Shown: piece after piece, positions 2,520-53,721 of the stretch | How positions within the stretch are numbered: the stretch's first letter is position 1 | How the letters are laid out: each line of letters opens with the position of its first letter | Source: Balanoglossus misakiensis | Lineage: Eukaryota; Animalia; Hemichordata | DNA: 64,000 nt | Reading direction: 5' to 3' | Assembly: GCA_040954595.2 (NCBI GenBank) | Contig: CM082597.2 | Location: 10,013,778 to 10,077,777, forward strand | The notes under the pieces: model-generated | What the model was told of the DNA's origin: nothing | Seen by the model: only the letters and a program-made list of their open reading frames with translations | The model's database searches: none | Translations under genes and position numbers: made by a program

Positions 2520-3011
2520 GGATCTGGTGCTCTCTACGGCGCTAACGATACCCCCCGGGCGATACCATTATTTCTTAGGGGAGGCCGAGGGGGGTGTGAG
2601 GGTGGATGTGAAAGTGGTAATTGAGTGTGACCAACAATAAAAGACTGTGTCGTCTATATATATGTGTCGAATATTTTATTTAAAAAAATCCAACTATATA
2701 AATGTTTAGGGTTAGGGTTAGGATCAGGGTTAGGATTAGGGTTAGGGTTAGGATCAGGGTTAGGAATAGGGTTAGGGTTAGGATCAGGGTTAGAAATAGG
2801 GTTAGGGTTAGGATTAGGCTTCGGGTTAGGGTACAGTTTGAACACCTTTATCGGTATAAAATGTTCGGTAGAATTTATTTATTGTTGACCATGATAGCAC
2901 TGACGTGTTAACACACGCAATTATCCACCCAAACATTCACGCACACGACCCCCTAAGAAATAATGGTATCGCCCGGGGGGTATCGTTAGCGCCGTAGAGA
3001 GCACCAGATCC
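2520..3011. mobile_element. MITE with ~60-bp TIRs and 8-bp TSD carrying telomere-like repeats
   Basis: TIR GGATCTGGTGCTCTCTACGGCGCTAACGATACCCCCCGGGCGATACC at both ends. TSD CCTTTTGC (2512-2519 and 3012-3019). Superfamily uncertain (Merlin- or MULE-like). Confidence 0.9.
2706..2831 (+). repeat. Degenerate (TTAGGG)n array, 21 hexamers, with a 30-bp higher-order unit
   Basis: The unit ttaggg/ataggg-ttaggg-ttagga-tcaggg-ttagga is repeated about 4 times. Confidence 0.95.
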
Positions 3012-3424
3012 CCTTTTGCTTTATGATCAGATCGTTTTGCTCTAATCAAATCATTATTTTTGTTCGAATACTCAATTTTGTACCTATCGCTTGGTCAACG
3101 TCTGGGGTCGACAACTCGATGAGATTGGCTCAGCACTGCCGCCCTCGCGACAGTTCCTGAAGCGTATAATAATAGGTCTTGGTCTTGTTCTCTGATTTGC
3201 GCCGTCATACTGTGATTAAAACTATGAATGGCCAGTGTCCATCAATCACATTTTCTAGAGTTTAGGGGTTATATTAGTCTGAATGGGAGTGTTTATGGGA
3301 AAAACCCTTGGGATTTTAATAAGTTAAAAGTATGTTAGCTGTAACTTTTGGATTTATTTTCAGTATGTTTGTTGTGTGTGCCAAATGCAATTTCTTGTTC
3401 TACACCAAACAGCATGGTAACATA

Positions 3425-4813: not shown

Positions 4814-5196
4814 TATTATTACATATGTACTGTCGATTACTTGCACCGAGCGCGCGCGTAACATAGGTATTTGCACTCAGTGCAATACCAAAAACATTAT
4901 GCCATACCTGTATGCAAATGAGTGGCCTGTTCACGAAACAAGCAATATCATTCTGCGGTCTCATTTCTTTCATTTTTGGTCTTGTTTTCAAAATGGGATG
5001 AACATATGTAATAAAAACAGAACCCCATGGCTCAATCGTGCAAGCACGGCGTATCGGTAGTATTTGCACTCGTGCTGGCGGTGTATTCTTGCGGTGTATT
5101 CTTGACGGGCGCAAGAATACACCGCCAGACACTCGATGCAAATACTACCGTTACGCCGTGCTTGCACGATCGAGCCATGGGGTTCTGTCATATTAT
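4814..5196 (-). mobile_element. Crypton-like terminal-hairpin element (family X1)
   Basis: TATTAT direct repeat at both ends. Inverted pair TTATTACATATGT/ACATATGTAATAA. ~180-bp hairpin at about 5012-5196 with CTCG in both arms on the + strand. Confidence 0.65.
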
Positions 5197-5219
5197 GGCA
5201 TTCTGGTCTATATAAAGGT

Positions 5220-10538: not shown

Positions 10539-10826
10539 CTTAGTACCTGTATTCATTCATCATTATATTCACTACTTTAGGTTACTGGTCTAACCTGCTG
10601 AGCACCACGACCACACCGACTCGGCTCAGCTCAGCTCTACTGACTGTCAGCATGCAATATCCGGCGGTTTAGCCACCGCGCACATTGATTGATAGGGATT
10701 TGAAGTTGAATATGAATCTGAGAAAGTGATCACAGCACGATTCCAGACTGTCGACGTTTGGATCTGCAGTCTACATATATTGAAATACATTGTTCATAAG
10801 CCATAGAGAACAAAAGTCTCGGCATT

Positions 10827-11027
10827 ATGGAACGCGTTTTATGGACATTCGTGTTATTTTTGTTTATGTTCAGAGCATGTTTTTGTCAACTTGTGGTGAA
10901 TGTTAAAAATGATGGCGGTGATCTCAGCCAAGAAAGCATTCAGGCGGACACAACGCAGGACATTATCACGCTCAAATTCCCCAAGTCGGATGGCACGCTG
11001 ATTTTGATGGTAATAGATTTTAAAGCG
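10827..11027 (+). CDS. OAF: Out at first (OAF) homologue, coding exon 1 (signal peptide plus N-terminal domain)
   Basis: ATG at 10827. Translates MERVLWTFVLFLFMFRACFC-QLVVNVKNDGGDLSQESIQADTTQDIITLKFPKSDGTLILMVIDFKA: a hydrophobic leader followed by the OAF-type LxVxVxxxxGxxxxE...D.IxLxFxxxDGT...xDF motif. 201 nt, then a GTGAGT donor (phase 0). Confidence 0.9.
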
Positions 11028-11368
11028 GTGAGTATTCCTTAGATTTGTTACAAATGGTAAACCATTACACCTTCGTTTTGTACCCAACTTGACTCAAGAA
11101 TTGGCAACTGTATTGCTGCGTTACGGTAGCACTAGCAGATAGCCATACCTAGTGTGTGTATCTTAGTGAGTTCTAAATAGGTAGCAGAAGTCCCCAAAGG
11201 TTCTCTAACATTGCAGATTTCGGCTCCAGTCGTTTCGGCCCCTAATTTTCACGACCCAAGTCGGTTTGGCCCCAAACTTGCTTAGTCGAATATGGAAAGG
11301 GGGGGGGGGGTCACTGGTCGAACAGCAAGCACACACATAGCTGCAAAGCTTGTAGCGGGTGCTGCTTA

Positions 11369-16194: not shown

Positions 16195-17114
16195 GTAAAC
16201 CCATACATCATACATGTACATGTGTTAGATAAAATTTAAGGCCAAAGCTATTGACAGGGGGAGACTTTATTCTCAAATTATTGCCAATTTTTGAAAACCA
16301 AAGCAAATTTCACATAGTCCATTAAACCCTGGGGCGGAAAATCCAGGGATTCGGATTAACGTGTGTTTGTACGATAGTTTATTTGGGAGTGATTGGGATA
16401 GGTCGTCATGCATAATGACTGTGTAACTAAATGTCGGAAAAGTTGGCAGTTTATCTGCGTAATCTGTTTGACCAGGTGGGCTAATCGCACTGACTAGTCT
16501 TGGAACTTGAGCTACATGTAAGATTAGTTTTAGCAGTCGACTGTTTACATTGTAGAGATGAAGTGTGATCAGCAGTGCACAATCGACGTATTCTGGGGGT
16601 TGTCGGTAAAGTTCTCCTAAGCGATTGCAATAAACCGCAGCCGAGTTTTAGACATCGATCTGACAAGCTATAAAACCCAGTGACAGAGTCAAACTTGAAG
16701 TATTGACAGATATAATATTTTCCACACTCTCATCATTAGAGAATCGTTGTCGAATGAAATTGTAATGTCAGAATAGTAGACCATATGTGAGTCGGTGCTT
16801 GTTACTGATTTAATTACTCGATAGGGCCCCTGCACGATTGCCGATTGCACTCATACTCGTGACTGGTTTCGATACTCCCTAGTCAGGTCAACCATCATTT
16901 GCTGTAACTACAAGCCCATTTGTCCAAACTGACGTAAATCAATTTTCCATAATCGTTGCTCTTCGCGAGTCCCTTACAGTGTACGCGGTGCGAGTTTGTG
17001 CCTTGAAGTTGAACTCACGACCAGCAACATGGAATCAATGGCATGGCGTACGCTGTGGTCGCCAGTCGGACACTCTCGCAATACGTAGGGCTATCAGCAC
17101 AAATATTTCGTAGT

Positions 17115-17542
17115 GAACACCTATTGCCTGGCCATGAGGGCCATAGCGGCCGTTTATTACACCCGAGGGACTGTGAGTTACCAGAATCATATGCTAAATA
17201 GCATATGATTCTGGTAACTCACAGTCACGAGAGGGTAAAAACGGCTGCTATGGCCCGAATATAGGCCAGGCTATAGGTGTTTTATAATAAACCTCATGCT
17301 AACAGCTGGGAAAATCTTGCAATTTTCTCTTGAGGTTGGCAGACGACATCTTCAGCGGTGGCCATTGTGTCAGACGACGCGACCGTGATTGACGTGGGCG
17401 AGTCTGCGCACTCACGCTGGTCACGTGACCGGTTTATATTTTTTCTGCTATTTCCCTAGCGGTTCATAGTCGATTCTATTTTCCTATCACGTGACGGATT
17501 CTGGCGAATCACGGCACAGTATTAGCATGAGGTATATTATAA
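17115..17542 (+). mobile_element. Crypton-like hairpin element family X2, copy 1
   Basis: Near-identical to 53276-53721. Hairpin at 17115-17287; inverted pair ACCTCATGCTAA/TTAGCATGAGGT; ends in TTATAA. Confidence 0.75.
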
Positions 17543-17989
17543 AGTTAGCTATAGCGAGACTGTTCATTGTCACTTTATGTTTTTCATATATAATACTAGT
17601 ACACATGTACATGTTGAAGAAGTAGAGTGGCTATTTTTCTGTAAGTGGAGTCAAAATTTACCACAAATTGTCAAACGTGGCGACAGTCCTATTGTTTCTT
17701 TTCTTCTGTGGCTCACTTGCCAGAGGACGTTTATTCAAGTCATTTGCGACTGTCATCAAAATGTCATCGTCTCTTCATGCTGCTGGCCATGATTGCGGCA
17801 AAGCTTGGCAAAGTTCAGACAACTAAGACCTCTGAAAGCATATATACTCTTTGTTTTTAGTGTAATTGATCCCGTGTACATAGCAAATGTTTGAACACTA
17901 CACCTCTGCGCGTCTCTGAAATATAGACAGCTGTGTGAATTGCATGGCCATTGTTTCCCAGGGATGCAATCTACAGTATGTGTCCAAAA

Positions 17990-23101: not shown

Positions 23102-23290
23102 TAGTCTTTTTATTAAATCTATACCTTTACTTATACATGTACCTCTATGGTTAAGCTATGTCCACGTCTTATTGTGGAATTCTGGTCTGTGCAATAGTCC
23201 TGTACAGTGACTGTCTATTGGTCAGTGAGCACAATGGGGCCAAAATAAAAGGCAAAATTTTAGGCTCACCTGTAACACCTTATTAACACA

Positions 23291-24400
23291 TTAATTATGT
23301 GCATACCTAATTCCGGGCTAACTAATAGGGCTAGAGGTTTCGTTCTTGTGGGACATGGACCAGTATAGGGTCAAAATTTCTTGCCCAAATTTTGGGTGGC
23401 CTCAGGTGACATTTGACCTACTTTCCTATATCTCGGCATCCAGAGCAGGTACAGACTTGGCGTTTGGAGGGTTGAGACTAAAATTGAAAAGCCAAAGTAT
23501 TGGTAACCTGTGACACCTGCATATCTCATTTATTATGTGCATACCTAATTCCAGGCTAACCAATAGGGCTATAGGTTTGGTTTTTGTTGAACATGGACCA
23601 GTATAGGGTCAAAATTTCTTGCCCAAATTTTGCATGACCTCAGGTGACCTTTGACCTTCTTTTCCATATCTTGGCATCCAGAGCAGGTACAGACCTGGCG
23701 TTTGGAGGGTTGGGACTAAAATTGAAAAGCCAAAATATTGGTAACCTGTGACACCTGCATATCTCATTTATTATGTGCATACCTAATTCCAGGCTAACCA
23801 ATAGGGCTATAGGTTTGGTTTTTGTTGAACCTGGACCAGTATAGGGTCAAAATTTCTTGCCCAAATTTTGCATGACCTCAGGTGACCTTTGACCTACTTT
23901 ATCATATCTTGGCATCCAGAGCAGGTACAGACTTGGCGTTTGGAGGGTTGGGACTAAAATTGAAAAGCCAAAATTGGGGGTCACCTGTGACACCTGCATA
24001 TCTCATTAATTATGTGCATACCTAATTCCAGGCTAACCAATAGGGCTATAGGTTTGGTTTTTGTTGAACCTGGACCAGTATAGGGTCAAAATTTCTTGCC
24101 CAAATTTTGCATGACCTCAGGTGACCTTTGACCTACCTTATCATATCTTGGCATCCAGAGCAGGTACAGACTTGGCGTTTGGAGGGTTGGGACTAAAATT
24201 GAAAAGCCAAAATTTGGGGTCACCTGTGACACCTGCATATATCATTAATTATGTGCATACCTAATTCCAGGCTAACCAATAGGGCTATAGGTTTGGTTTT
24301 TGTTGAACATGGACCAGTATAGGGTCAAAATTTCTTGCCCAAATTTTGCATAACCTCTGGTGACCTTTGACCTACTTTTCCATTTCTTGGCATCCAGAGC
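23291..24400 (+). repeat. ~239-bp tandem array (about 4.6 units) inside HINE N2
   Basis: Unit starts at about 23291, 23530, 23768, 24006 and 24246. Confidence 0.95.
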
Positions 24401-24558
24401 AGATATGCTTATTGCTATGTTGCTATGTGCTATGTTGGCTTGGGCCCGATATTGCTGCTTGCAGATCTGCTTGCAATGTCACCTGTAATTTTTATTCTGG
24501 TGTGTCACTGTTTCCGCATAATCCTCAAATGGGACCACAGTGTCCTTGACGCTATTTT

Positions 24559-24890
24559 TATATTTTGTAACTCATCTGAGATGATGAAAAAATCTAACGT
24601 ACTTTGTTGAATAACGGGACGTCGCCTCCGCCAAGTATACTGCCTTTTGTTTTCATTCCTAATACGCCAAATGTCCACTAAACTGAATCGCTCCTGTATT
24701 TCATCAAAAGTATCCAGTGATTTTTTCCAAGTCCTGGAGTTTTTGTACGATCTGTCTAGGCTGTTGTTTAGTGAAAGTTAAAATCTCCCACCTGAACAGT
24801 CAGGGTCTGGAATTTGATCTGTGAGCGTGAGTCTGTTACCTATGTTCTTGAGATAAGGATGATGCTCCATTTCAATGTTAGGGGCATAAG
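24559..24890 (-). mobile_element. Tx1/L1-clade LINE endonuclease relic (part 1)
   Basis: LVDIWRIRNENKRQYTWRR...STLDFFIISDELQNI, which joins directly to KKLDILPGLGSDHS at 18822. Confidence 0.85.
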
Positions 24891-25322: not shown

Positions 25323-25412
25323 TATGGGCGAGGGTGTGGGGAAAGCCAAAAATTTATGGGCGAGGCTTCCGAGCCCATGAATTTTTGGCTTTCCCCTCGC
25401 CCTCGCCCATAT
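25323..25412 (+). repeat. Hairpin with CGAG/CGAG (Crypton-like terminal hairpin, family X3)
   Basis: atgggcgaggg...atggg-CGAG-gcttc-CGAG-cccat...ccctcgcccat. Confidence 0.6.
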
Positions 25413-28699: not shown

Positions 28700-31180
28700 C
28701 AAGTCTTACAACAGGCTTTCTCACTCTCTGAGACCTTCTAAGAGGTACACTTTCTGGAGTAGTATTTGAAACCTCTGTACTGACTTTTCTGTTTTGAAAC
28801 TCTCAATAGCAACATTTGAACTTTGTTTCACTGGTGAATGATCAATGCTTTCAGAAGGAATATTTCCCTTAGTGTGAACAGCATCATTCTCAATGAACTC
28901 GGGTACAACAACTTCTGGTTCATTAACATAATCAGGTATTTTGTCATGTGCTCTAATCAAATGATCAGTATGAACAAATCTCATCGAATGACCAATTCTA
29001 ACAACATAACGTCGTGGTCCACATACTTTCACAATAGTGCCTGGGATCCATTTCTCCAGCTTCGAATTTTGTCTTTTGTTTCGTACACGAACTCTATCAT
29101 ACATCTGAAAGGTTCTATCATTGGCAGATGTGTCATGATATTGCTTTTGTTTCTCTTGTTTCTTTTCAACCATCTGTGCAAGATTTAGGTTTAACCAAAC
29201 TCAATCTGCTTCGCAAAATTCTCTTTACCATCATTTCAGCTGGACTGACACTAGTAACACGATGTGGTGTTATTCTATATCTCAGTAAGAAATTTGCAAG
29301 TCGGTGTTTCATGGACATTCCCTTTATACCATGAAAAACTTGTTTCAACAATGCCTCCGTGACAATTCTCACTGATCTCTCTGCTGCCCCATTTGACTGT
29401 GGGTGGTAGGGCGGAACTAAAGTATGCTTTTTATACCATTCTTACTCATAAACTCTGCAAACTCTGCTGAAGTAAATTGTGGTCCATTATCTGACACAAA
29501 TTCTTCAGGCAGACAATGATTCGCAAAAATCAAACGCAACTCGTCAATTGTACGATCACTTGTGGTTGAAGTCGTATGTTTCGCCTCAATCCACTTTGAG
29601 TGACTGTCAACTAATATCAAAAAGTAATCAGTGCCTTTCTGACAGAAATCAATATGTACACGTTGAAATGGGCGTGTTGGCCATTCCATGGTATCAATGG
29701 AGCACTAGATGGAGCACTCCTCACACTCTGACAAACAATGCAAACTTTCACCGTTTTCTCAATTTCCTCATCCATTCGAGGCCACCAAACACATGTACGC
29801 GCAATTGCTTTCATACTACACACACCTGGGTGTTCCCAGTGTAATTCACTCAACATTTTCTCTTGGAAAACTGCTGGAATTATAACCCTGGTTCCCCAAA
29901 GTACACAGCGTTGTCATGCCGTCTACTGTGATATGGTTTCATTGACTCATCAATACAATGCTCAGGCCAACCAGTCATTACAAACTGATGAACTCGACTC
30001 AACACTGGATCAGTGCATGTTGCCTTTGCAATGTCAGCTGCTGTAATTGGAAAATCATCATCCACAGCCCTTACTGTATATATCCTACTCTCACTAGCTA
30101 CATTGGAAATGTCATGTGGTAAACGTGAAAGAGCATCACAATTTGCATGATCTTCTGATCTCCTATACTCTATCTCATAGTCGTAGGCTGATAATATCAA
30201 TGCCCATCTCTGCATGCGTGCTGCAGCTAAAGTAGGAATAGCTGATTTTGGACCTACATGTAAAAGTGCCAACAACGGTTTATGGTCAGTAATCAAAGTG
30301 AACTTACGACCGTATAGCAACTGGTGAAATTTCTTCACTCCAAATACAATAGACAATGCTTCACGTTCGATCTGCGCTTAATTCTTTTCGCTAGCGTTCA
30401 AGCTGTGCGATGCATATGCAATAGGTCTCTCTTGACCATTATCCATCACATGGCTAATCACGGCACCTAGTCCATAACTAGACGCGTCACAGGCTAGTCT
30501 CAGTTCGCGATTTGTATCATAATGCACTTATAAAGCATCACTGGACAGACCGTTTTTACACGGATCATACGCCTTCTGGCAATCAGATGTCCATTTCCAC
30601 TTGACATCCTTTCTGAGCAACACGTGTAATGGTGCTAGTATAGTAGCAAGATCTGGCAGAAATGAATGGTATATTGAACCATGCCTAGGAAAGATCTCAA
30701 CTCGTGAACATTTCTGGGAATAGACAGCTTCAGATTTTAGGAATTTACATTTATCCAATTTCAGATGAATATTGTGTCGATCCAATCTTTGCAACACTTC
30801 ATCAAGGATATGGAGGTTTTCTTGCCAATTTTCTCCGCCAAGAAGTATGTCATCTTGTTTACATACACATTTTTCAACTCCTTGCAAAATTTGATCCATT
30901 TTTGCCTGAAATATCTTGGGTGCGGATTTTACCCCATAAAGCAATTTGGTATATGAATACAACCCTTTATGAGTGTTAATTGTGAGGTACCCCTCCCTGA
31001 CTCTCCTTATCAACACTAAGTTGTGCGTATGCATGTGACAAATCAAGTTTTGTGAAAACTTTGGACCCAGCTAATTCAGCATACAAATCTTGAGTAGTGG
31101 GAAGTGGATACTGCTCATCCTCTACAGCTTGGTTTATGGTAACCTTGTAGTCACCACATATTCTCACAGACTTGTCGGCC
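28700..31180 (-). mobile_element. Ty3/Gypsy pol (RT-RNaseH-integrase), frameshifted
   Basis: RICGDYK, KLDLSHAYAQL, YGVKSAPKIFQ, QDDILL, TDHKPL, HANCDALSRLP, HPGV...VWWP...C..C, HIDF, SDNGPQF, GP(R)RY. Confidence 0.95.
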
Positions 31181-32451
31181 TTTATTATTATTATTATTAT
31201 TATTATTTTATCTTTATTTCAGATTATAAAATAATCCATAGCAAAACAAAACACCATAAAAACATCAAAACAATCGTCTACTCCAAACCTTCCAAAGTTT
31301 ACTATTTGAGAACACTGATAGTGATAAAACACTGGCTACAAGTGGATTACTTGAGAGGTGGAGTCTGCTTAAAAAGCTGAATAATTTTTTCCGGAGTATT
31401 TCATCAAAAGTTAAAATACAAAGATTAACAAACATCGCACTGTTGCTCTGAATAAAAGAATGTTTAAAACCAGACAATTTACGGAAAACCTGGGAGTAAG
31501 CTCTCCTAACTGCATTGAAAATACACACAGAAAAAGCACTCCATAAGTAAGAGCAATACGGGATATCACAAAATACAGAAAACAAATGACATTTAACAGA
31601 GATAGACGCAAATTTAAAATCACGAATAATAGCATTACCGCGAACATAAAATTGTCGAGTTTGAGCTAAAATGTCCGCATTATCCCTAAGGTCACAAGTG
31701 ATAAGGTGACCAAGATATTTATAAACATTGACATAATTCAGCATTCAGCCGTTCAGATAAATTGGAACGTGTCTGAGCCTGCGCATACTGGTAGAGTTGA
31801 CTTTTCAGAGCCCTCTGACTCAGAGCCCCTCAGAGCCCTCTGAAGTTTCAGAACCTCAGAACCCGGACCTCAGAATTCTTGTTGACCTCAGATATAACCC
31901 AAAAATGTACCTGTATAATTAAATATAACGATTACAAATGGGTATATTATATGTCATGTTGCTAAAATTACTCCCGCTGAAAATACGACGTACTACATTG
32001 TATGGCAAGTGCGAGGTCGTGACTGCCTATTGCCATATTTGTTTTCGAAGTTTATGTCGATTTCAGATTCGGATTCAGCCACTGATTCCGATTCACCAGT
32101 AACGCGTTTTCTTTTCTTATTTCCTTGCAAATATGAAAGTATTTTGTAGCACACGACAAACTAAAAAACAATTAATACATAGATAATAAAGTTCCTTCAC
32201 TTGCAGTGATCTTTCACCGCCAGGCATTTGTATTCAACCTGTCCCCCATTATATATCAGTGGGAAGGGCAATGTTATGATTTATTTGTGCAGCGGTGAAT
32301 TATCATTGTGGTAATATTGATCATGCAGATATGATGTGGCTATTATAACAAGAAAACTTTCTTCAGAAACTTGTTTTCATTGCCTAGATTATTTTTTATC
32401 AAAAGTGATTTGATATTATTCATGTTTACATATTATGTATGTATTTATTGT

Positions 32452-33975
32452 TTTTAGGTCCCATTGGTATAGGCCTATATACCATGGGACCTTATGGGAT
32501 GGGTTGCGTCTGTATGTATGTATGGATGGATGGATGGATGGATGTATGTATGGATGTATGGATGTATGTCCGTCCACATCAAAAACTTGAAAACCGCTGC
32601 GCGTATCACCTCAATATTTGGTGTGTAGGTGCAGGCAGGGCTGTAGATGGGAGTTTGTCCAAACGAAGTTGCCAGGCCCAAAAATATGCAAATTAGCTTG
32701 TAAAATGTGAAATTGATCAAAACTCTGTAAGTCAACAATTACTGGTCAGATTGCTTTGAAAATTGGTATGCATGTACCTTATGTCAACCTCACACCGACC
32801 TGTAAGTGTTAAGTTGATATCATGGATGTTTTATTTTTTATGAATTTTTTAGTCTTTTTATTAAATTTATACCTTTACTTATACCTCTATGGTTAAGCTA
32901 TGTCCACGTCTTATTGTGGAATTCTGGTCTGTGCAATAGTCCTGTACAGTGACTGTCTATTGGTCAGTGAGCACAATGGGGCCAAAATAAAAGGCAAATT
33001 TTTGGGCTCACCTGTAACACCTGCTTAACACATTAATTATGTGCATACCTAATTCCGGGCTAACTAATAGGGCTAGAGGTTTCGTTCTTGTGGGACATGG
33101 ACCAGTATAGGGTCAAAATTTCTTGCCCAAATTTTGGGTGACCTCAGGTGACCTTTGACCTACTTTCCTATATCTCGGCATCCAGAGCAGGTACAGACTT
33201 GGCGTTTGGAGGGTTGGGACTAAAATTGAAAAGCCAAAATATGGGTCACCTGTGACACCTGCATATCTCATTAATTATGTGCATACCTAATTCCGGGCTA
33301 ACCAATAGGGCTATAGGTTTGGTTTTTGTTGAACATGGACCAGTATAGGGTCAAAATTTCTTGCCCAAATTTTGCATGACCTCAGGTGACCTTTGACCTA
33401 CTTTTCCATATCTTGGCATCCAGAGCAGGTACAGACCTGGCGTTTGGAGGGTTGGGACTAAAATTGAAAAGCCAAAATTGGGGGTCACCTGTGACACCTG
33501 CATATCTCATTAATTATGTGCATACCTAATTCCAGGCTAACCAATAAGGCTTTAGGTTTGTTTTTTGTTGAACATGGACCTGTATAAGGTCAAATTTTCT
33601 TGCCCAAATTTTGCATGACCTCAGGTGACCTTTGACCTACTTTATCATATCTTGGCATCCAGAGCAGGTACAGACTTCGCATTTGGAGGGTTGGGACTAA
33701 AATTGAAAAGCCAAAATTGGGGTTCACCTGTGACACCTGCATATCTCATTAATTATGTGCATACCTAATTCCAGGCTAACCAATAGGGCTATAGGTTTGG
33801 TTTTTGTTGAACATGGACCAGTATAGGGTCAAAATTTCTTGCCCAAATTTTGCATGCCCTCAGGTGACCTTTGACCTACTTTTCCATATCTTTGCATCCA
33901 GGGCAGATATGCTTATTGCTATGTTGCTATGTGCTATGTCCTCAAATGGGACCACAGTGTCCTTGACGCTATTTT
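32452..33975 (+). mobile_element. HINE N2 copy with ~3.6 x 239-bp array
   Basis: Same termini and core as 21455-24558. Confidence 0.85.
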
Positions 33976-34209
33976 TTCTTGTTTTAGAATAAACTCTTTG
34001 AAATTTAACTGCTTGTTTGTAAATTTTTAGCAAGAAATATATACGCATTTGACATACAGCAAACCTATAGTAATAATCCTAATGGAAGGAGAATAAGCGC
34101 AGTGTGTGAGGACACAAAGTTTGTCAAAAAGTCATTAATTTGAATGCCTGGCAAATCCAAAATGTTTTCCATGGGCTTTATTCTGATGGACAAATAATTA
34201 AATTCTTAA

Positions 34210-36781
34210 AGGTGGCATTGCATGAAAAGTTGTGATTTTTGCCAAATTTACTTTTTTAGGTCCCATTGGTATAGGCATATATACCATGGGACCTTATGGG
34301 ATCGGTTGCGTCTGTATGTATGTATGGTTGTATGGATGTATGGATGTATGTCTGTATGTCCGTCCACATCAAAAACTTGAAAACCGCTGCGCGTATCACC
34401 TCAATATTTGGTGTGTAGGTGCAGGCTGGGCTGTAGATGGGAGTTTGTCCAAACGAAGTTGCCTGGCCCAAAAATATGCAAATTAGCTGGAAAAATGTGA
34501 AATTTATCAAAACTCTGAAAGTCAACAACTACTCGTCAGATTGCTTTAAAAATTGGTATGCATGTACCTTATGTCAACCTCACATCGACCTGTAAGTGTT
34601 AAGTTAATATCATCGATGTTTTATTTTTTATGAATTTTTTAGTCTTTTTATTAAATTTATACCTTTACTTATACCTCTATGGTTAAGCTATGTCCACGTC
34701 TTATTGTGGAATTCTGGTCTGTGCAATAGTCCTGTACAGTGACTGTCTATTGGTCAGTGAGCACAATGGGGCCAAAATAAAAGGCAAAATTTTGGGCTCA
34801 CCTGTAACACCTGCTTAACACATTAATTATGTGCATACCTAATTCCGGGCTAACTAATAGGGCTAGAGGTTTCGTTCTTATGGGACATGGACCAGTATAG
34901 GGTCAAAATTTCTTGCCCAAATTTTGGGTGACCTCAGGTGACCTTTGACCTACTTTCCTATATCTCGGAATCCAGAGCAGGTACAGACTTGGCGTTTGGA
35001 GGGTTGGGACTAAAATTGAAAAGCTAAAATTGGGGGGTCACCTGTGACACCTGCATATCTCATTAATTATGTGCATACCTAATTCCAGGCTAACCAATAG
35101 GGCTATAGGTTTGGTTTTTGTTGAACATAGACAAGTATAAGGTCAAAATTTCTTGCCCAAATTTTGCATGACCTCAGGTGACCTTTGACCTACTTTATAA
35201 TATCTTGGCATCCAGAGCAGGTACAGACTTGGCGTTTGGAGGGTTGGGACTAAAATTGAAAAGCCAAAATTGGGGGGTCACCTGTGACACCTGCATATCT
35301 CATTAATTATGTGCATACCTAATTCCAGGCTAACCAATAGGGCTATAGGTTTGGTTTTTGTTGAACATTGACCAGTATAAGGTCAAAATTTCTTGCCCAA
35401 ATTTTGCATGACCTCAGGTGACCTTTGACCTACTTTATAATATCTTGGCATCCAGAGCAGGTACAGACTTGGCGTTTGGAGGGTTGGGACTAAAATTGAA
35501 AAGCCAAAATTGGGGGTCACCTGTGACACCTGCATATCTCATTAATTATGTGCATACCTAATTCCAGGCTTACCAATAGGGCTATAGGTTTGGTTTTTGT
35601 TGAACCTGGCCCAGTATAGGGTCAAAATTTCTTGCCCAAATTTTGCATGACCTCAGGTGACCTTTGACCTACTTTATCATATCTTGGCATCCAGAGCAGG
35701 TACAGACTTGGCGTTTGGAGGGTTGGGACTAAAATTGAAAAGCCAAAATTTGGGGTCACCTGTGACACCTGCATATCTCATTAATTATGTGCATACCTAA
35801 TTCCAGGCTAACCAATAGGGCTATAGGTTTGGTTTTTGTTGAACATGGACCAGTATAGGGTCAAAATTTCTTGCCCAAATTTTGCATAACCTCAGGTGAC
35901 CTTTGACCTACTTTTCCATATCTTGGCATCCAGAGCAGATATGCTTATTGCTATGTTGCTATGTGGTATGTTGGCTTAGGCACGATATTGCTGCTTGCAG
36001 ATCTGCTTGCAATGTCACCTGTAATTTTTATTCTTGTATGTCACTGTTTCCGCATAATCCTCAAATGGGACCACAGTGTCCTTGACGCTATTTTTTACAT
36101 AAATCGGTAGGTCTAATACTGTTTCACATTCTGACAAATGCGTCTTGGCGGAAATGGTGCATAATCACCCAAAAATAGCACTTTTCTGAATGAGTCCACA
36201 GCTTAAGAAATCGGTGTCAACAATGCAAATTGCCATTTTTCTCAGTTTGCATTTTCGCTGCTCTTAACAACTTTTTAGTTGTCAAGAATTTAGCTTCGCT
36301 CTGCGTTGGCCGAATTTGCTCAAATTTTAACAGGGGATTGTGTATGACCCATCTAACAAAACAATTTTTTTTAGTCGATAAAGTGTCCTTGGCGGGAATA
36401 AAATCTGATTCAATACAACTCATTGTGAATTTGATCAAAAATCTAACTTGCAAACACTGTTACTCCTCAATGGAAGCAGATAACGCTAAACTAAATTTTG
36501 TTTTTTTGCATGTGTACTCTAGTTTCGAATGACATACTAAGATGCATGATGCATGGTCAACCGTTTTACCTAATTTCAATTGAATGACATAATATCAAAA
36601 AAATGCTTTTTTTAACCCAAAAACGCCACCATTTCCGGGGGTCAATGAAATGTGCAACTCAAACAAAAGTTCAAAAACTCAGCTTCCAGAATATGTATGG
36701 TTTATAGGGGTTTTAAAAATTATTGTCTTTGAAGAGAAATAGGTCTCTGAAAAAGTCTTGATGGTTTCGTGCAATACCACA
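34210..36781. mobile_element. Kolobok-like element hosting a HINE
   Basis: TTAA-AGGTGGCATTGCA ... TGCAATACCACA-TTAA. The right part recurs at 63820-63962. Confidence 0.6.
34253..36095 (+). mobile_element. HINE N2 copy with ~4.6 x 240-bp array
   Basis: Same termini and core as the other N2 copies. Confidence 0.85.
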
Positions 36782-37223
36782 TTAAGTATTGAATTGATTT
36801 CCAAATTCTCTTCTTTTGGTGTTTCTTCTTGCGATTTATTTTGTCGTGTGCTACAAAATACGTTTATATTTGTAATGCAATGCAAGCAAAAAAAGAAAAG
36901 TAACGCGTTACTGGTGAATCGGAATCCCTGGCTGAATCGGAATCTGAAATCGACATAAACTTTGAAAACAAATATGGCGGGTAATAGGCAGTCACGATCT
37001 CGCACTTGCCATATAACGTAGTACGTCGTATTTTCTGCGGGAGTAATTTTGGCAACATTGCACCTATTTGTAATCGTTATATAATTATACAGGTAAATTT
37101 TGGGATTATACCTGAGGTCAACAAGAATTCTGAGGTCCGGGTTCTGAGGTTCTGAAACTTCAGAGGGCTCTGAGGGGCTCTGAGTCAGAGGGCTCTGAAA
37201 AGTCAACTCTACCTGCGCATACT

Positions 37224-37930
37224 TATATATAATTCCCCCGTATTTCGAACGAGTGTGCCTGCGTCGCGGACGAGTGATTCCCCGTATAGCGGCCGTACAG
37301 CTATACGGGGAATCACGAGTTCGCGACGCAGGTACACGAGTGAGGAATACGGGGGAATTATATGTTTATCACATACATATATCCGTCATTTTGATTTTCA
37401 AATAAATCTCTTTGTGGTTGCGATAAAATTTGGAACTATTTTGAGCAAAATTGAAGATCGATGTTATGCGGTCTATCTGTCAGGTGACTCAGGTCACGAC
37501 CTGGACGATTCTGGTTTTGGCGAGGACCCATCTGTCGTGCGTCAGCTGGATTTCGTCGTCCGTCAAGGTTTCACTGGAGCAGGAAACCTTTCTTATGCCT
37601 TTTGCTTTATGACTAGACCGTTTTGCTCTAATCGTCGCATCAAAATTTTGGCGAATACTCAGTTTTGTACCTGTCGCTCGTTCGACAATGCGACGACATT
37701 GGCTCAGCACTGTCCACCTCGCGACAGTTTTGGTGCCGGTTGGTGCGATAAAAATGTACATAAAACCAACAATTGCACTGAATTTTGTCGCCCTAAGGGG
37801 ACTTTGTTTACAAGTTTAAAATAGTTCCGTTTGGTGACGTCAGAGGGATGGGTATTACAATAACGCTTGGTGCAAATTTACCTACGTCTGACGTCATACT
37901 ATGGTATATGCGGAGCTATGTATATGATAA
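37224..37930 (+). mobile_element. Crypton-like hairpin element family X4 with putative recombinase relic
   Basis: Hairpin at 37226-37363 with CGAG/CGAG twice. Inverted pair TTATCACATACATA/TATGTATATGATAA. Minus-strand relic AKRSSHKAKGIRKVSCSSETLTDDEI. Confidence 0.65.
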
Positions 37931-39329
37931 AATAACTAAAATCATCAGCGTAAATTAAATGATTAACCTTATAGTCCCCTACAAGGCAGCCATACGGAAG
38001 AGCGGAAAGATTTTTGCTAATTTCATCGAAGTAAACTGTGAAAAATATAGGTGACGTAATTCCCCCCTGTTTAACCCCATTCTTTGAGTGAAAAGGTTTA
38101 GATAACAACCCATTCCATCTCACCACAAAATCTTGGTGCCTATACATGTATGACAAAATCTTAATGAGATAAGGATTGACACCCCTCGCCAAAAGTTTTA
38201 CAAAGAGAATATCGTGACGAACATAATCAAAAGCTTTGGATGCATCCATAAAAGTGACAAAAACAGGAGTGTTACAACGCTTGTAATAGTTCAAAATTTC
38301 TTTAAGCACAAAAATAGACATATCGGTACCATGGCCTGGTTTAAATCCAAACTGGTGCTCGCTAGTCGTTAGACAATCCATGCAGCAATTTAACCAAACT
38401 CTCTCTAACAGTTTAGATATCGTTGTTGCAACGGCAACAGGACGGTAGTTAGATTTGTCACAAATGTCACCACCTGGGTTTTTTGGAATGGGAACTAAAA
38501 CCGTAGTCATCAATTGTTTGGGAACAATGCCATGAATTAAAATAGCCGTGAAACAGAGGGAAAGTAGAACAATGACTCTGTATGGCGCATACTTCAGGTG
38601 CTCAGGTGACACCATGTCGATACCCAACGATGCACCTGTCTTAAGGTTCTTAATTAATTCACAAATTTCTTCATGGTGTACAATCATGTCATCACAGTAC
38701 TCAATGTTCATAAAATCAGGTGCTGACTCTTTTCCAGTTTTTGTCAAAATATTCTCGTAATGGTCTTTCCACATATTAACCACTTCAACATCACCCGTAT
38801 GACCATCAATAGATCATATGATGGAGATATTGATCTACCTTTCCGTTTACTGACATCTTTCCAGTACGCCTTGGAGTTTTTCTTTAATTTTACAGCCAGG
38901 GCATTTGCGCGCATTTCTTTTTCTGCCTTCTTACAATTTGCTAACTGCCTTTTAAATGGAGCTCTGGACCTGCGCATAAGTTCAAAGAAGGGACCAAATT
39001 TAGGGGAGCCATTATCCTTCCAGATTAAAAAAATCAGTGCGAGCTTTGTCATAATAATCTTTGACTAGAGCATTCCAACCAGGAATTGCATGCTTATTTG
39101 AGTGTGTAATTTTAGGAAGAGTCCTATCCGCTGCGGTTAATAGTACAGATATAATATCATTGTAAAAAGTGTCAATCAACTCTGAATGTATACAGCAGTC
39201 TGGATCAGTACATGCCAGTGCTTCAACAGGAATATAAACTTCAGATAAAAGTCTATCACAATACACTTTATAGTTTTCAAGTTGACAAGAGGACGCTTTG
39301 TTCCAACTAGGACTATGTTTGAAACTTCT

Positions 39330-39815
39330 ACAATAGGACTGGCCCAATCCGACCTATCGGTTTTTACAATGACGCCGTTTTTCTCGAGTTTTTCCAACTC
39401 TTTTTCGACTGCATCTTTCAGAGCATAAGGAACTCTACGTGGCTTGATAAACACATGTTTTGCATTATCACGAACAGTGATGTGCGCTTCAAACCCTTTC
39501 ATACCCTCATAGCTGTCATCAAACAACTGTGCATGTTTTGACAGAAGCTATCAAGTTGTTTCTTTGCATTGCTCTGATTCGAGACACTTGTGGCAGATGA
39601 ATTGATGACACTGAATATCTCACCCCAATTCAACCTGATCTTATTGAGCCAATTTCTGCCCAATAAAATAGGTTTTCTCACAACATTAGCCACTACCATG
39701 GGCAATATGACCTTTTGGCCATTGTATTCTACTTTGCAGCTCATTTCACCACAATTATCGAGCATTTCACCTGCATGTCGCATGTGACATTGTTTACTGA
39801 CATTTTTACTGTGTA
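39330..39815 (-). mobile_element. Upstream part of the same Gypsy pol (protease end to RT start)
   Basis: ILLGRNWL, PRRVPYALKDAVEKEL...SDWASPIV; resumes as KADKSVRICGDY at 31180. Confidence 0.92.
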
Positions 39816-39817
39816 AC

Positions 39818-41955
39818 TTTTTAGCTCTGCTGTCACTTGTGTCAGCCGAGCTGTAGCAGTAGGTTGATAAGTGTCCGTCCGTCGTCTGTCGTCCGTCAAC
39901 TTTTGGTATTTCAATCTTCTTCTTTAAAACTACTTGGCATATTTAGCTGAAATTTGGTTGGAATATGTGTTATGGTGCCAAAAAAAAAAAAAAGTTTTGT
40001 TTAGCGTCCTCGCGTGCGTCACTTTTAAACATGCGCGTCAAGGCTTTTTTTTCGTAATTTTCGAACCTGGAAATCAACTTGCAGTGTTTTCTCCAGGACG
40101 CGCAATCGCGCGATTCCCCCTCTTTTACACTTGAAGCGCCCCTTGTAACAAGTTCAGGGGGGCGACAATCGCCCCTTCTTGAGCAGCCCACCCGGCCAGT
40201 ACATGCACGTCCAAGCCTCCATAGCAGGCACCGTCAGTCAAAACACTGGGAAAACGGCCGATATTACTGCGTGCTGGCCTATATATTTTAACTTCCCACC
40301 CCCCAAAACTATGTTGTAGATGACTTTCACATTCATTTACGTGTAATTTAGCTCCAGGGCTATAGTGTGCAATTGTTGGAACAGCCTATCTGGATACTGT
40401 CTAAATTTAGAGCACACACTCTGCACTCAAGTGAACTTGTTGTTATGGCGACTTTTGAAATTGGGTTGGCAGAACGTAACAATTTTATGCAAATTAAAGA
40501 AACTGCGTTCCTGTCATGGCGAATGTATCAGTTTTCCATGACCTTGTTTTCTTACTTAGGAAGGAAAGTCATTCAATATGTACAGAGACTGTTTATTTGA
40601 GTAGTGTGCCTAGCCACAGATGGGGAAGTGTAGGCAGAAATCTGAAGAAATATATACCACTTCAATTTATTTAACTATTAATGGTTTCACAATCTAATAT
40701 TTTGGCAGCTAAACTGAAACTTTTAAAATCAAACAAGAAATTTTTTTCTCAGGTATAGTATTAAAGAAAGACACTATTGTCATTTCACTCTACTTGCCAG
40801 GGGAGCAGTTAATCAGTCACTCTCCTACCACTTGTGTAATTAATTTCAGGAGAGTTATTTTCAGCTCTCCAGCATTTTTTAAATTACATGCCCTGAAAGT
40901 TATGCAAGCTGGTGTCTTCTGTAACTGTTAATATGTTGTCAAGTTCACATGTAAAATGTTGTAATTTACTTATGCTGTTTTTAATATGGAATGAAGGCAG
41001 TTAGTAAGTTAACATTCAAAATTGTCATTCCTTGATGTTTACCTAATTAACATAAATTAAGCAAATCATGATTCCCCCCTTCTTTGACCAAATCCCCCCC
41101 CCCCCTTAATTTTGGACTATTAAAGAAATATTTGCTGTTCTTGTTTCGCAGAAAAAAAAAAAAAAAAAAAGAAGCCGCGTCACCGCATCAATTTTGAGAT
41201 TTTGCTTGGACGCTAAACAAAACCCTTTTTTTTTTTTGGCCTTACCTGATTTTGTTAATTTGGATTTGATGGGGTCATGAATATGCAAATTAGATCTAAA
41301 AATAGAAGTTTTGGTAAAAATCTTCTTCTCCACAACTACATGTACAATGGAGCTGAAATTTAGTAGGAATGTGTGTTATGGTGCCCCTACCTGATTTTGT
41401 TAATTTGGATTTGATGGGGTCATGAATATGCAAATTAGATCTAAAAATAGAATTTTTGGTCAAAAATCTTCTTTTCCATAACTACATGTACGATGGAGCT
41501 GAAATTTGGTAGGAAAGTGTGTTATGGTGCCCCTTCCTGATTTTGTTAATTTGGATATGATGGGGTCATAAATATGCAAATTAGATCTAAAAATAGAATT
41601 TTTGGTAAAAAATCTTTTCCCTAAATACATGTACGATGGAGCTGAAATTTGGTAGGAATGTGTGTTATGGTGCCCCTACCTGATTTTGTTAGTTGGAATT
41701 TTGATGGGGTCATGAATATGCAAATTAGAACCTTGGTGCTTCCTTTTGATGTTGTTCTTTAGGAATAAATTCTTTCTTTCTTTAGCACAATGAATCAAGC
41801 TGAATTTGGATATTAAATACTTGTGATGTCTATGTTTGGTTTTGTTTAATAGAATACAATTGTTATGATTAAAACCTAGGGTATTCATATCATTGCCCAG
41901 CTATAGGTTTCACTGTTAAAGTCAGCAGAGCTCTTTTGACCGATAGGTCACTTTT
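39818..41955 (+). mobile_element. HINE N3, full length, 145-bp array, interrupted
   Basis: subTIR AGCTCTGCTG/CAGCAGAGCT; 3' TGACC-GATA-GGTCA hairpin plus T-run. Confidence 0.8.
39977..41241. mobile_element. Zator/Harbinger-like TIR element
   Basis: GCC-A(n)-GTTTTGTTTAGCGTCC ... GGACGCTAAACAAAAC-CC-T(n)-GGCC-TTA. The left TSD has been lost. Confidence 0.7.
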
Positions 41956-42812: not shown

Positions 42813-43265
42813 TAAAGATGGTATCTGATCTTAGACGCTTCAGAACCGTCTTAAAGGTGTGTGTGTGACCCCCATATATAGTATAGTTCTATACATGTAG
42901 TTAAGCCATTAAGCCTAAATGAGTTTTTAATACTTGAATAGCATCTGTGAAGAGGAGCCAGTAAAAATTCCCTTGTGGAGTATCAGACTGAGAAGAGACT
43001 TCTTGTGGTCGAGGTCCTGGGATCATTTCCCAGCATGTCTCTTTGCAGTTTTTTATCCAGTGAAGACCAAGTTTGTACATCAAAGTTCACCAAATCTTTG
43101 AATGTGTCGGTTTACTAGTAAATCTTACTGTTTCTAACAAAGTGTCATGACGAGAATATCAGTTATGGGGAAATAAGAAGTATGGTTTGAACAATGGGCA
43201 CAGGGCAAAGAGTGGTATAACTGTGTTTAATATTGATATTCTAATATTGCTGTATTGCCACACAG

Positions 43266-43443
43266 AAAAATCCTGGAGCAATTCGGAACCCTGAAGAAGA
43301 CAAAGGTCAAGAATATTTGCTGATGGATTTGCAAGTGGACCTGAAAGAGTCAGACAAGTTCAGTAAACACATCCACAATGCCTGTATAGAAGCACAGGAA
43401 TCAACATACATTAGAGAAAGTGATGTGAGAGCTTTGTCTAAAG
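43266..43443 (+). CDS. OAF: OAF coding exon 3
   Basis: CACAG acceptor. Translates KNPGAIRNPEEDKGQEYLLMDLQVDLKESDKFSKHIHNACIEAQESTYIRESDVRALSK, which continues exon 2 as the conserved KLRQ|KNP..IR.PEE.G. 178 nt, GTACAG donor (phase 1). Confidence 0.92.
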
Positions 43444-44341
43444 GTACAGTATATATGTTTAGTCTAGGTCAATTTGACACATTATATGCAACTACCTGTA
43501 AGCCAATATGATATTACATGAAAATATTTCATGATACTTGATGTTCAGTGATAGTGATGTAAGGCAGATCCCTTTTGAAGTCACCATAAACTTCAAATTT
43601 GAAAGTAACTGTTAACATGTTTGAATAATGACATAAAATGTTGGCTTAAATGTTGGTTTGCAGAGATAATTTAAACCCATAAAAGCAGATGCATACAATG
43701 TATTGTTGCTACCATTGTAATCCATGTGGATGAAATCTGGCTCTAGGAATTATGGATAAGATCAAATCCATTCTTCCATCACATGTCATTTTTCAGACAC
43801 GTTAAACTTATTTTTACAAACTGAGTTCAAAGGTTGCACTCTAAGGCAGTTCCAGGTTGATTTTTTGTGATATGATCCAATACATTCACCAGAGCTATTT
43901 TTGTGACATATGGATTTTTCTGATTTTGCTGCTGGAATTCATCTGGTAGTGAACTCTAACCTTCAATTATTTATTCTGAATTTAAATCTAAAATTAAGTT
44001 TGATATAATTGTTTGTTTATCTGTCTTATTTCTATCATATGAATTTTTATGAGATAATATTTCTTCTCATTTACAAGATAACAGTTACTGTGATGAGGTT
44101 CACAGTGTATGTAGTATTCAGTGAATGTAATAATTCGTCGTCGGTCGTCACTATTACCTTTATTTTTCATTGCTTTTGAGGTTTCATTTCCAGTGCGGCT
44201 CGGCACGTCATAAATGTGAGACAAGTACATGTAGTTTACATTTGCTAGTCTTTGTATAGCCATAACTGTGATCAGAAAATGAACTGTGCAAAGTTTTAGG
44301 TCACTGGCTAGACTTGCTCAAAGTCTAAGGGCTTCGTTAGT

Positions 44342-45564: not shown

Positions 45565-46252
45565 TTAAAAGCAATTTGTTCCGAGTCTCCCTATGTAGCG
45601 TATGTGGAGTAAAAGACAGCGAGTTCAGCGCGTGTGTCTAGGAAATGTGTAGGCCCATAGACTTGTACACCTTGCTGCTTTCCAGTTGCTATGAATTATT
45701 GTCATCTCATGAATATGTATTAGCTAATTTAAATAGTCAGCGGAGTTTCAACGCATGACCTCGCGTACCCGAAATTCATACCTACGAAATATGTGTGTGC
45801 CTTGTTATCTCTTGGAGCTAGTGATAAACGCAAAAGGGTTTATTTCTTTTCAGTCATTCAATGTGAAATTTGGTCATCAATTTGTATGTTCGCCTGACGT
45901 CTGAAACCATAGTTGCAGCACAGCGACATTGTGTAACTATGTACATGCTTAAATTTTGAATACAGATTGCGGGTGCCACACAAACAGACTTGAGATGAAG
46001 CCAGATGCTTTCCACCTGAACATCTACACGCGAACATGGGTTCTACGCATTCACGTTATGTTTATATCTCTTTATGCTTATTGGCGCATGGGATCGACGC
46101 CCCTGTCAATCATTCTCGACTATGTCAACAAACTGCCTGAGCATTTGTAGATTTTGCAAGGTGTACTAGTCGCTTGGTCGACGCTACCCAAAACCATGAG
46201 CTCAGTCCCAAATTCGAAACTCGCCTCACTACCAGAAACACGCTCAAGGCAA

Positions 46253-46564
46253 GGTAGAGTTGACTTTTCAGAGCCCTCTGACTCAGAGCCCCTCAGAGCC
46301 CTCTGAAGTTTTAAAACCTCAGAACCCGGACCTCAGAATTCTTTTTGACCTCAGATATAACCTCAAAATTTACCTGTATAGTTAAATATAACGATTACAA
46401 ATACAATGTAGGTGTAATGTTGCCAAAATTACTCCCGCAGAAAATATGACGTACTACATTGTATGGCAAGTGCGAGATCGTGACTGCCTATTACCCGCCA
46501 TATTTGTTTTCGAAGTTTATGTCGATTTCAGATTCAGATTAAGCCGGGGATTCCAATTCACCAG
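46253..46564 (+). mobile_element. Solo TIR of the 31790-37213 family
   Basis: Colinear with 31790-32100. Confidence 0.88.
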
Positions 46565-47350
46565 TTCAACTCCATATACGCACTCGCTATCGCTCGTGCG
46601 TATATGTCGTGAACTGGTCAAAATCTCGTGGTATACCATGGCTGGGGGTGTTTTATTGCTATTATATTATGCCAGTATATTGAAACTTTGCATAAAATAT
46701 TTTAAAAAGGCATTTTCTTTGACTATGATATATGACTGTGGTATATGACTAATATATCACAGTCACGTGTCGTGTCTCGACCAATAAAATAGCGTGATTT
46801 ACACCATCAATATACTGGTATAATATAATTAAGCAATAATGCACTGCTGGCAGTGCTAAAACGGGCCCCTGAACTAGCATACGGCAACAAAAATGTGCGG
46901 TTAAACCACAGTCGTGCGTGTTTAAACCAAATAAATAAAACAAAAATACTGTTGAATTAACGGACGTTTTATTTTGGAACTGCTCTGTGGAAATATTTGT
47001 CACTTTGCCACGCGCGATGCCCGTCTTGTCACTTGTTGTCGTCTGCTTCATGTTTAATGCTCGATCCCGGCTGGATCGCAGCCGCTCGTGTTTACATTCA
47101 TCGTCGCCATGTTGGTTCACGATCGTAATTTCTCTTTCTGACGCCGTTTCGGTAAGAAAATGACACTGATATGCCACAAAAACAGTTGTTGATATAATAT
47201 AATAGCAATAACCCCAGCCTCAGTCGGGTATACACTCGATTTGGGTACCATTCGCTCCATATAGCACTCGCCTGACGGCTCGTGCTATATGTCTCGAATT
47301 GTACCCAAATCTCGTATATACCCGCCTGTGGCGGGGGTTATTGCTTAATT
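46560..47350 (-). mobile_element. Cluster of Crypton-like hairpin elements (family X5)
   Basis: Hairpins at 46560-46660 (partial) and 47202-47347 with repeated CTCG in both arms. Inverted pair CCAGTATATTGA/TCAATATACTGG. Confidence 0.6.
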
Positions 47351-48030
47351 ATTTAACAGTGATTATATTATATCAGTGTAACATGGCCACAATTACAAAT
47401 ACAGTGTTGTGATTGGTTGAGAGCCTGTGTTAATTTATGCAAGCCACGGTTAAAATGTCTGCGTCATGCCCTTGATTTCCAGTCAAAATCTCTATCATAG
47501 GAGCATTTTCAAACACTGCCTACTGTGTTGATTAAAAAAAAAAACATGTACGCGGCGGCAAAATTCTTAACACATAACAGGTCTTGCAATTTACACGCCA
47601 AACCAGGTAGTGGACCTTTGCCTATAGGGCAAAACTGTATTAACCGCCATTTTGAAAACCGCGTTGCATTGTAGGAACGGCTCGATGATAATAATACTTT
47701 TCAGAACAGTAGACGACTATTAGAACTAAAATCTGACCTTGAAATGAGAGTTTGTCGGGAAAAAAATGCTTGGAAGGAGCAGAGTGTCTCGGTAGGTGTC
47801 TACATTACAACGCTGTGGGTCTTCCGGGTACTCAATGCCCCCCCCCCCCCCCTCAATTGTTCCACAATGCAACACAGTTTTCAAGATGGTGGTTAATACA
47901 GCTTTGCCCTATACTGTCCTTCATGACTGGAACGGCCTAATTGCATAATCTTCCCCAAAAATAAAGCCAGCTATGTCAACAGTCACAGACCATTGGTAAA
48001 CACTTGTAATAAAGCTTTCTGCAGTAAATA

Positions 48031-49261: not shown

Positions 49262-49417
49262 ATTATATAAAATAATAGCAATAACCCCCCGCGGAGGGTG
49301 GGTATACCTCTCAATATTGCACAATTCACTCCATATATGCACATGCCTGCGGCTCTTGCATACATGTCATGAATTGTGCTATTGTGGTATACCTGCTCTC
49401 AGCGGGGGTTTATTAAG
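49262..49417 (-). mobile_element. Diverged X5-like hairpin
   Basis: aatagcaataaccccccg...ggtatacc...ggtatacc...cgggggtttatt. Confidence 0.55.
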
Positions 49418-52970: not shown

Positions 52971-53281
52971 TTATACACATGATGACTGACAATGAGGGCA
53001 ACAGTGTATTTTGATGACCGAGGGTGCTGCTAGTCAACTAAAACGGTCTTGTTTTGGTGTGACTGGCAGTCCCGAGGTCATCAAAAATACACTATTGCCC
53101 AGATATGTCAGTAATCATGTGTTTTATAACACATCAAACACGACACACACCACATCCAGGCAACAGTACCGGGCAGAAACCGATCGAACTGATGCCCTAG
53201 GGAAAAGTTCGAAATGACTAAGGTCACGTGACGGCGTTTTTACGAATCACGATCGAGGGTTCGCTGCATGGTGTGTTATAA
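52971..53281 (+). mobile_element. Crypton-like hairpin element family X6
   Basis: Hairpin at 52975-53122 with CGAG/CGAG; internal site TGTGTTTTATAACACATC; right end GGTGTGTTATAA. Confidence 0.7.
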
Positions 53282-53721
53282 TGAACACCTATTGCCTGGC
53301 CATGAGGGCCATAGCGGCCGTTTATTACCCACGAGGGGCTGTGAGTTACCAGAATCATATGCTATGCTAGGTGAAATAGCATATTATTCTGGTAACTCAC
53401 AGCCACGAGGGGGTAAAAACGGCTGCTATGGCCCGAATATAGGCCAGGCCATAGGTGTTTTATAATAAACCTCATGCTAACAGTTGGGAAAATCTTGCAA
53501 TTTTCTTTTGAGGTTGGCAGACGACATCTTCAGCGGTGGCCATTGTGTCAGACGACGCGACCGTGATTGACGTGACCGAGTCTGCGCACTCACGCTGGTC
53601 ACGTGATCGGTTTATATTTTTTCTGCTATTTCCCTGTAGGGTTCATAGTCGATTCTATTTTCCTATCACGTGACGGATTCTGGCGAATCACAACACAGTA
53701 TTAGCATGAGGTATATTATAA
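53276..53721 (+). mobile_element. Crypton-like hairpin element X2, copy 2
   Basis: TTATAA at both ends (53276-53281 and 53716-53721); hairpin to about 53466. Confidence 0.78.

Follow-up and report, generated by a model that had tools for sequence, protein, structure and literature searches.

The attP site of the CTX phage is a folded single-stranded DNA substrate of a recombinase, and is one case with which the elements described here can be compared. Cryptons belong to the tyrosine-recombinase elements; their terminal direct repeats, if present, are short (4-6 bp), and they are modelled as circles, while the animal Cryptons were reported by Kojima and Jurka as lacking terminal repeats in the available text (PMC3212892). 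The mechanism given for them in the literature consulted is a model drawn by analogy. Within this group, CryptonA is found widely among invertebrates, and non-autonomous elements derived from it are abundant (PMC3212892). In the attC sites of integrons, G:T pairs and a purine skew favour the recombined strand (PMC5027507), in line with the premise of an earlier note on this DNA that imperfections in the attC hairpin select the strand. DIRS elements are eukaryotic tyrosine-recombinase elements with single-stranded intermediates, in which an essential internal complementary region (ICR) is complementary to both joined termini and single-stranded cDNA is integrated by the tyrosine recombinase (PMC7192593). 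The CGAG block, in which CGAG is placed opposite itself, is a stable DNA motif with sheared G.A pairs that has been solved by NMR (PMC10085684), and the stability that the earlier note had assumed for tandem GA/GA pairs is thus supported.

The window, a stretch of 64,000 nucleotides from the hemichordate Balanoglossus misakiensis, consists of repeat-rich animal DNA with about 40% G+C. The earlier note had described a long hairpin at 37226-37363 and eight others, including a degraded one at 49270, as palindromes that are interrupted by tandem G.A mismatches on one strand. All nine hairpins are present. Each is one end of a small, non-coding element that consists of a hairpin and a tail; these hairpin-and-tail elements are about 300-700 bp long, dispersed and multi-copy, and were sorted into families A to F (Table 1).

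Table 1. Positions and strands of the hairpins, tails and elements in the window.
Feature	Positions	Strand	Remarks
Family A hairpin	37224..37363	+	~64-bp arms, variable loop, 3 GA/GA loops, 3 G.T wobbles
Family A tail, non-coding	37364..37907	+	Hairpin and tail are joined in contigs, e.g. X2 record 37275-37569
Family A tail end	37908..37934	+	Inverted copy of the sequence just past the tail-side arm; 0/400 background windows reach the score
Family B element	17111..17543	+	Hairpin 17115-17287 (2 GA/GA), tail, mirrored tail end 17517-17543
Family B element	53280..53721	+	94% similar to the 17111 copy; both junctions TTATAAT; lies on the 52972 element's tail end
Family D element (remotely related to B)	52972..53280	+	Hairpin 52975-53122 (one GA/GA intact, one broken); tail short; both junctions TTATA
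Family E element	4816..5197	-	Hairpin 5012-5196 with a single GA/GA on -; tail probably extends towards 4816; both junctions TATTAT
Family C copy	46557..46829	.	Left arm truncated; two GA/GA on -; tail rightward, mirrored end 46807-46829
Family C copy	46825..47352	-	Hairpin 47199-47352: 2 GA/GA and AGA/GAG on -, GTCA loop
Degraded family C hairpin	49275..49416	-	One GA/GA still kept
Family F short hairpin	25323..25411	+	One CGAG/CGAG two pairs below a 3-nt loop

The arms of the family A hairpin are formed by positions 37227-37290 and 37300-37363. On the + strand, a CGAA/TGAG loop places 37247-8 opposite 37342-3, and two CGAG/CGAG loops are located at 37251-2/37338-9 and 37272-3/37317-8. The G.T wobbles lie on the same strand, as had been claimed, together with a single G.A that adjoins the loop. 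The predicted DNA fold has an energy of -61 kcal/mol on the + strand and -54.5 on the - strand, each far below that of shuffled sequences (z -14.1 and -12.5). The gap between the strands is larger when the hairpin is modelled as RNA (-20.9 kcal/mol) than as DNA (-6.5), and an RNA stage may thus be possible.

Copies of this hairpin were taken from contigs of one sample of the same organism, perhaps the source sample (runs X1-X3), of which 148, 132 and 1 records align on 37214-37392; sequencing runs from a second organism gave no coverage of the hairpin. In the contig comparison, which yielded 16 variant rows at a 1% threshold, the absence of a variant row is not proof of identity, nor is depth a measure of copy number. 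Among the 12 motif positions, only 37317 is variant (0.5% and 1.4% of depth), and five of the six wobble positions have no variant, while a T to C change at 37333 (4% and 9%) restores the pair. Since the contig copies keep the motif and wobble positions, the family A consensus is not the perfect palindrome that, according to the earlier note, would speak against its proposal, and the GA/GA loops are the majority state in other copies. The mismatches common to the family A copies may possibly reflect shared descent within a young family. By hand count, CpG-type changes affect six of the 12 CpGs that lie outside the motifs and none of the five within them, which is at most suggestive. The hairpin loop varies between contig copies, and a depth step and loose contig ends place the left edge of the family at about 37223-37228. 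In one X2 contig, 37229 and 37408 are joined in opposite orientation, which hints weakly at a flipped copy. A part copy of family A without the hairpin is located at 2317-2519 and 3012-3155; an element at 2520-3011, whose perfect inverted ends of 62 bp enclose TTAGGG-like repeats, is inserted in this tail copy.

Beside the family A hairpin lies a 5.4-kb element (31790-37213) with terminal inverted repeats of about 380-420 bp and a perfect 10-bp target duplication (31780-31789/37214-37223), which is probably MuDR-like. In the 46560 hairpin, a cut copy of the end of this element (46252-46565) has taken the place of the left arm. Pieces of a LINE reverse transcriptase on the - strand (31268-31744 and 37902-39353) flank the nest at 31790-37934, and some of the LINE between them is apparently missing. 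Broken pieces of LTR-retrotransposon pol (RT, RNase H and integrase) are found on the - strand at 28724-31218 and 39179-39942, and a unit of 238-240 bp forms three arrays (23128-24560, 32870-34025 and 34660-36096) as well as scattered single copies.

The ladders of the nine hairpins, read by hand, contain 15 tandem GA/GA loops and one AGA/GAG triple. The statement that CGAG or YGAR stands opposite itself in both arms holds for 13 of the 15 loops, but not for two loops in the family of 46560 and 49270, which are not YGAR. GA/GA and TC/TC never occur together in one hairpin. The earlier note had proposed to test whether GA/GA and G.T mismatches are enriched on one strand relative to ordinary palindromes. 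In an automated and strand-neutral count, 12 of 15 2x2 loops in the named hairpins are of the GA type, compared with none of 21 in 16 other inverted-repeat loci of the window, with the caveat that the named set was picked for the motif and that part of the control loops derives from inner regions that align weakly. G.T pairs outnumber A.C pairs on the GA strand by 13:3 (hand count, one-sided p 0.011). Further nulls are independent of how the named set was picked. Short chance stems, taken as a background, contain GA/GA in 2 of 284; a strict motif-neutral scan, which requires four Watson-Crick pairs on each side, misses real motifs and is usable as background only. Over all loops, 12/36 against 2/144 corresponds to p ~5e-14, although the loops are not independent.

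The GA strand folds better in all nine hairpins, partly by construction. Both strands fold well, and the strand gaps of five control palindromes (2.2-6.3 kcal/mol) are similar to those of the named hairpins (0.4-6.5). The energy difference was therefore rejected as a diagnostic. The GA strand is the + strand in five hairpins and the - strand in four, and a role in host transcripts is therefore unlikely as a general explanation. A classification as ordinary MITEs of DDE transposons was also rejected; the elements have a hairpin at one end and a tail, and their mismatch spectrum is unlike that of the 16 other inverted repeats.

The families were originally described as unrelated in sequence, which is an overstatement. 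The elements with hairpins at 17115 and 53276 are 94% alike over 440 bp (family B), and those at 52975 and 5012 are remote relatives of these, with ladder alignments that score above 60 shuffles and in which the inner CGAG/CGAG is aligned. For family A, no convincing alignment to the other families was obtained, and only one of seven comparisons was marginally above the shuffled null. Between 53276 and 52975, 13 of 56 shared Watson-Crick columns are changed on both sides with the motif retained. The hairpins at 46560, 47202 and 49270 belong to one family (C), in which the middle G.A tandem outlasts differing closing pairs. The loops of this family are GNNA tetraloops on the GA strand, and its end presumably resembles the ends of Eulor5/6.

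The mismatches recur across diverged stems, survive compensatory changes in the stems and are the majority state in copies, which supports the conclusion that they are not the product of decay. They could also persist without selection if the arms were homogenised by hairpin-templated repair and the tandem G.A loops escaped it, G.A mismatches being poorly repaired. Arm homogenisation could by itself account for the compensatory changes, but it should also erase the mismatches. Each loop moreover requires two transversions, and simulated neutral decay of the 37226 arm produces GA/GA in only 2 of 5943 2x2 loops when CpG hypermutability is included and in 25 of 5256 when it is not, and never two such loops in one hairpin (0/6000). 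Ordinary palindromes in the window have no GA-type loops, and this explanation, which we consider highly improbable, predicts no link between the mismatches and the polarity of the tail. The GA/GA and G.T mismatches probably reflect a fold on one strand that is maintained by selection.

The tail-side arm of the hairpin is complementary to the free end of the element and, just beyond this, to the far end of the tail. The mirrored tail end is significant in four of the six elements tested, namely family A, both copies of family B and 46560 (0/400 background windows each), but not, taken alone, in families D (52975, 59/400) and E (5012, 34/400). No mirrored tail end was found at 25323, 47202 or 49270, and no tail end was found within 1.3 kb of the family F hairpin at 25323. 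In family B, the mirror falls where the homology between the two copies ends. Joining the tail end to the free end is predicted to stabilise the modelled stem from -61.0 to -71.9 kcal/mol in family A, from -82.8 to -92.1 in family B and from -52.3 to -59.9 in family D. These three models gain 8-11 kcal/mol and have a small bulge where the two ends meet. The junctions carry the repeats TTATAAT, TTATA and TATTAT in three of five elements, and imperfect repeats in two. These AT-rich words are partly a product of the mirror design and not independent of the mirror, and are weak evidence for a Crypton-like repeat of 4-6 bp.

The GA strand is the strand that runs from hairpin to tail in five of the six elements with an assignable tail. 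The exception is the copy at 46557-46829, the polarity of which is opposite to that of the other families. Its neighbour at 46825-47352 is bounded by a perfect 15-bp inverted repeat (46825-46839/47338-47352), so that the 47202 copy looks as if it has terminal inverted repeats and family C is a poor fit to the hairpin-and-tail scheme. In A, B, D and E the ends are not inverted copies of each other, as would be expected of Cryptons, which should have no terminal inverted repeats. A small perfect hairpin is located just inside the inverted end of this unit (46841-46856). As side observations, the words CACGTG or TGACGT occur in several tails (17390-17493, 53225-53230, 53568-53672, 46764-46769 and 37835-37896), and families B and D have a conserved block in common near the tail end; both may be sites for host factors.

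The arrangement of the ends bears on two alternatives in which the hairpin would act in a single-stranded intermediate. The elements could be non-autonomous rolling-circle transposons of the Helitron2/Helentron or another HUH type, in which the intermediate is recognised through its hairpin; the hairpins at Helitron2 termini show compensatory changes, and these elements make no target duplication (PMC3627910). However, the 3' ATIR of Helitron2 pairs with the 5' ATIR and is followed by the 3' hairpin, and the described examples insert after TTTT (PMC3627910), whereas in the present elements the pairing partner of the tail end is the inner arm, adjacent to the free end, and tail end and free end share one sense; a distal hairpin was not seen, and the flanks of five elements are not T-runs. 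Two defining features of Helitron2 are thus lacking, although another rolling-circle enzyme may act on the elements; overall, a rolling-circle origin is very unlikely. The elements could alternatively be non-autonomous partners of DIRS-type elements that fold as RNA or single-stranded cDNA, the inner arm being the ICR that splints both ends. They are like DIRS in that one internal stretch is complementary to both termini (significantly so in the four elements above), and the large strand gap in RNA would agree with such a stage. Unlike DIRS, they lack a reverse transcriptase, no long inverted LTR pair was seen at the ends of A, B, D and E, and no DIRS coding remnant was seen in 249 frames of the window. 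The complementary stretch is also the arm of a terminal rod, and the ICR is not described as part of such a rod in the available text of PMC7192593. We consider a DIRS-type origin quite unlikely.

A third alternative is that Crypton-like elements recombine as ordinary double-stranded DNA, and that the hairpin is a cruciform, a replication-origin signal or a promoter signal, or that proteins bind to the CGAG words, which stand in direct orientation. A double-stranded circle is the standing model for Cryptons (PMC3212892), and several of the motifs (ACGAGT, CCGAGG) are small palindromes, to which a protein could bind in a duplex. Yet G is kept opposite A although the flanking context varies (CGAG, TGAG/CGAA, CGAC/GGAG, AGA/GAG), and a duplex model leaves unexplained both the G.T bias and the mirror of both ends. 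On balance this alternative is unlikely, if credible.

In the preferred reading, the elements are of the Crypton type and the hairpin end, with its one-strand mismatches, stabilises a folded single DNA strand that is used as a site by a tyrosine recombinase. They resemble the descriptions available for non-autonomous CryptonA (CryptonA-1N1_OL and Eulor5/6; PMC3212892, PMC5753468) in being short, gene-less, dispersed elements of an animal host with a similar size (353-554 bp in medaka) and no target duplication past a short shared word. They differ from these descriptions in the terminal hairpin, the mismatch code and the mirror at the junction, and no recombinase is linked to them. Like the attC sites of integron cassettes, they have an imperfect hairpin with G:T pairs and a purine skew on one strand, a small bulge near the crossover and a variable loop (PMC5027507), and the elements at 52972 and 53280, the second of which sits on the tail end of the first, are tandem head-to-tail neighbours as in cassettes. 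Unlike integron cassettes, they are eukaryotic, with longer rods, tandem sheared G.A loops and no integrase gene; an unsystematic look did not bring out the RYYYAAC/GTTRRRY core of attC. Their motif is the same four bases opposite themselves as in the CGAG block, which is a promoter repeat in the published case (PMC10085684) and here lies within long Watson-Crick stems of mobile elements.

Under the Crypton-type reading, the two ends of an element would be joined into a circle or a single-strand intermediate, and the joined ends would pair with the inner arm and complete the long stem, leaving the small bulge at the junction. The sheared G.A and G.T pairs would favour one strand and thereby determine which strand recombines and in which direction. 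Strand exchange at the AT-rich junction word could then be carried out by a recombinase provided in trans, and the product would be resolved by replication or repair in the host. We infer both the Crypton label and the single-strand mechanism from the comparisons above, and judge the mechanism as a whole to be about equally likely right or wrong. A broader proposal, which we put forward tentatively and with some doubt, is that animal Crypton-type transposons recombine as folded single-stranded DNA, with the inner arm splinting both ends into an attC-like site and the tandem sheared G.A pairs serving as a strand-selection code; they would then correspond, in eukaryotes, to integron cassettes, with recognition resting more on shape than on sequence.

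A Pfam scan of the 249 stop-to-stop frames of at least 65 aa in the window identified no tyrosine recombinase or HUH family. Its matches are limited to two exons (frames 10800-11039 and 43245-43508, + strand) of a gene of the OAF family, pieces of LINE and LTR-type reverse transcriptases, and weak noise. Searches for known structured RNA families with Rfam at the gathering score and with a tRNA scan gave no matches. Pattern scans gave 0, 0 and 1 matches in viral contigs, the single one a chance match in a phage, none in prokaryote genomes, and 30 loci in metagenomes, none of which is a rod hairpin (28 are variants of one low-GC gut-type locus and two are copies of a very AT-rich stretch). These viral, metagenome and prokaryote collections thus yielded no animal copy and no autonomous partner.

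The proposal of the earlier note, that selection maintains a one-strand fold that is read by a mobile system based on single-stranded DNA or RNA, is supported in part: the mismatches are not decay, and the elements are dispersed and multi-copy. Formation of the fold in vivo, its reading by an enzyme, its action as DNA or RNA, the recombinase and the Crypton assignment belong to the conjectural part. The structural feature is real and probably selected, and is located in non-autonomous elements of a probable Crypton type, with a mechanism that is deduced by comparison. No description of the structural code was found in the open literature, including the available text of a 2026 CryptonA paper (PMC13465315), in which the terms "hairpin", "palindrom" and "single-strand" do not appear; Repbase, Dfam and subscription papers, which lie outside this search, may describe the hairpin. 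If true, this would be the first case of a recombinase of a eukaryotic DNA transposon that acts on folded single strands, and it would give a natural role to the well-studied CGAG block. A conserved hairpin code that is flexible in sequence would supply a testable substrate for Cryptons, and a way to find these elements and to define their boundaries.
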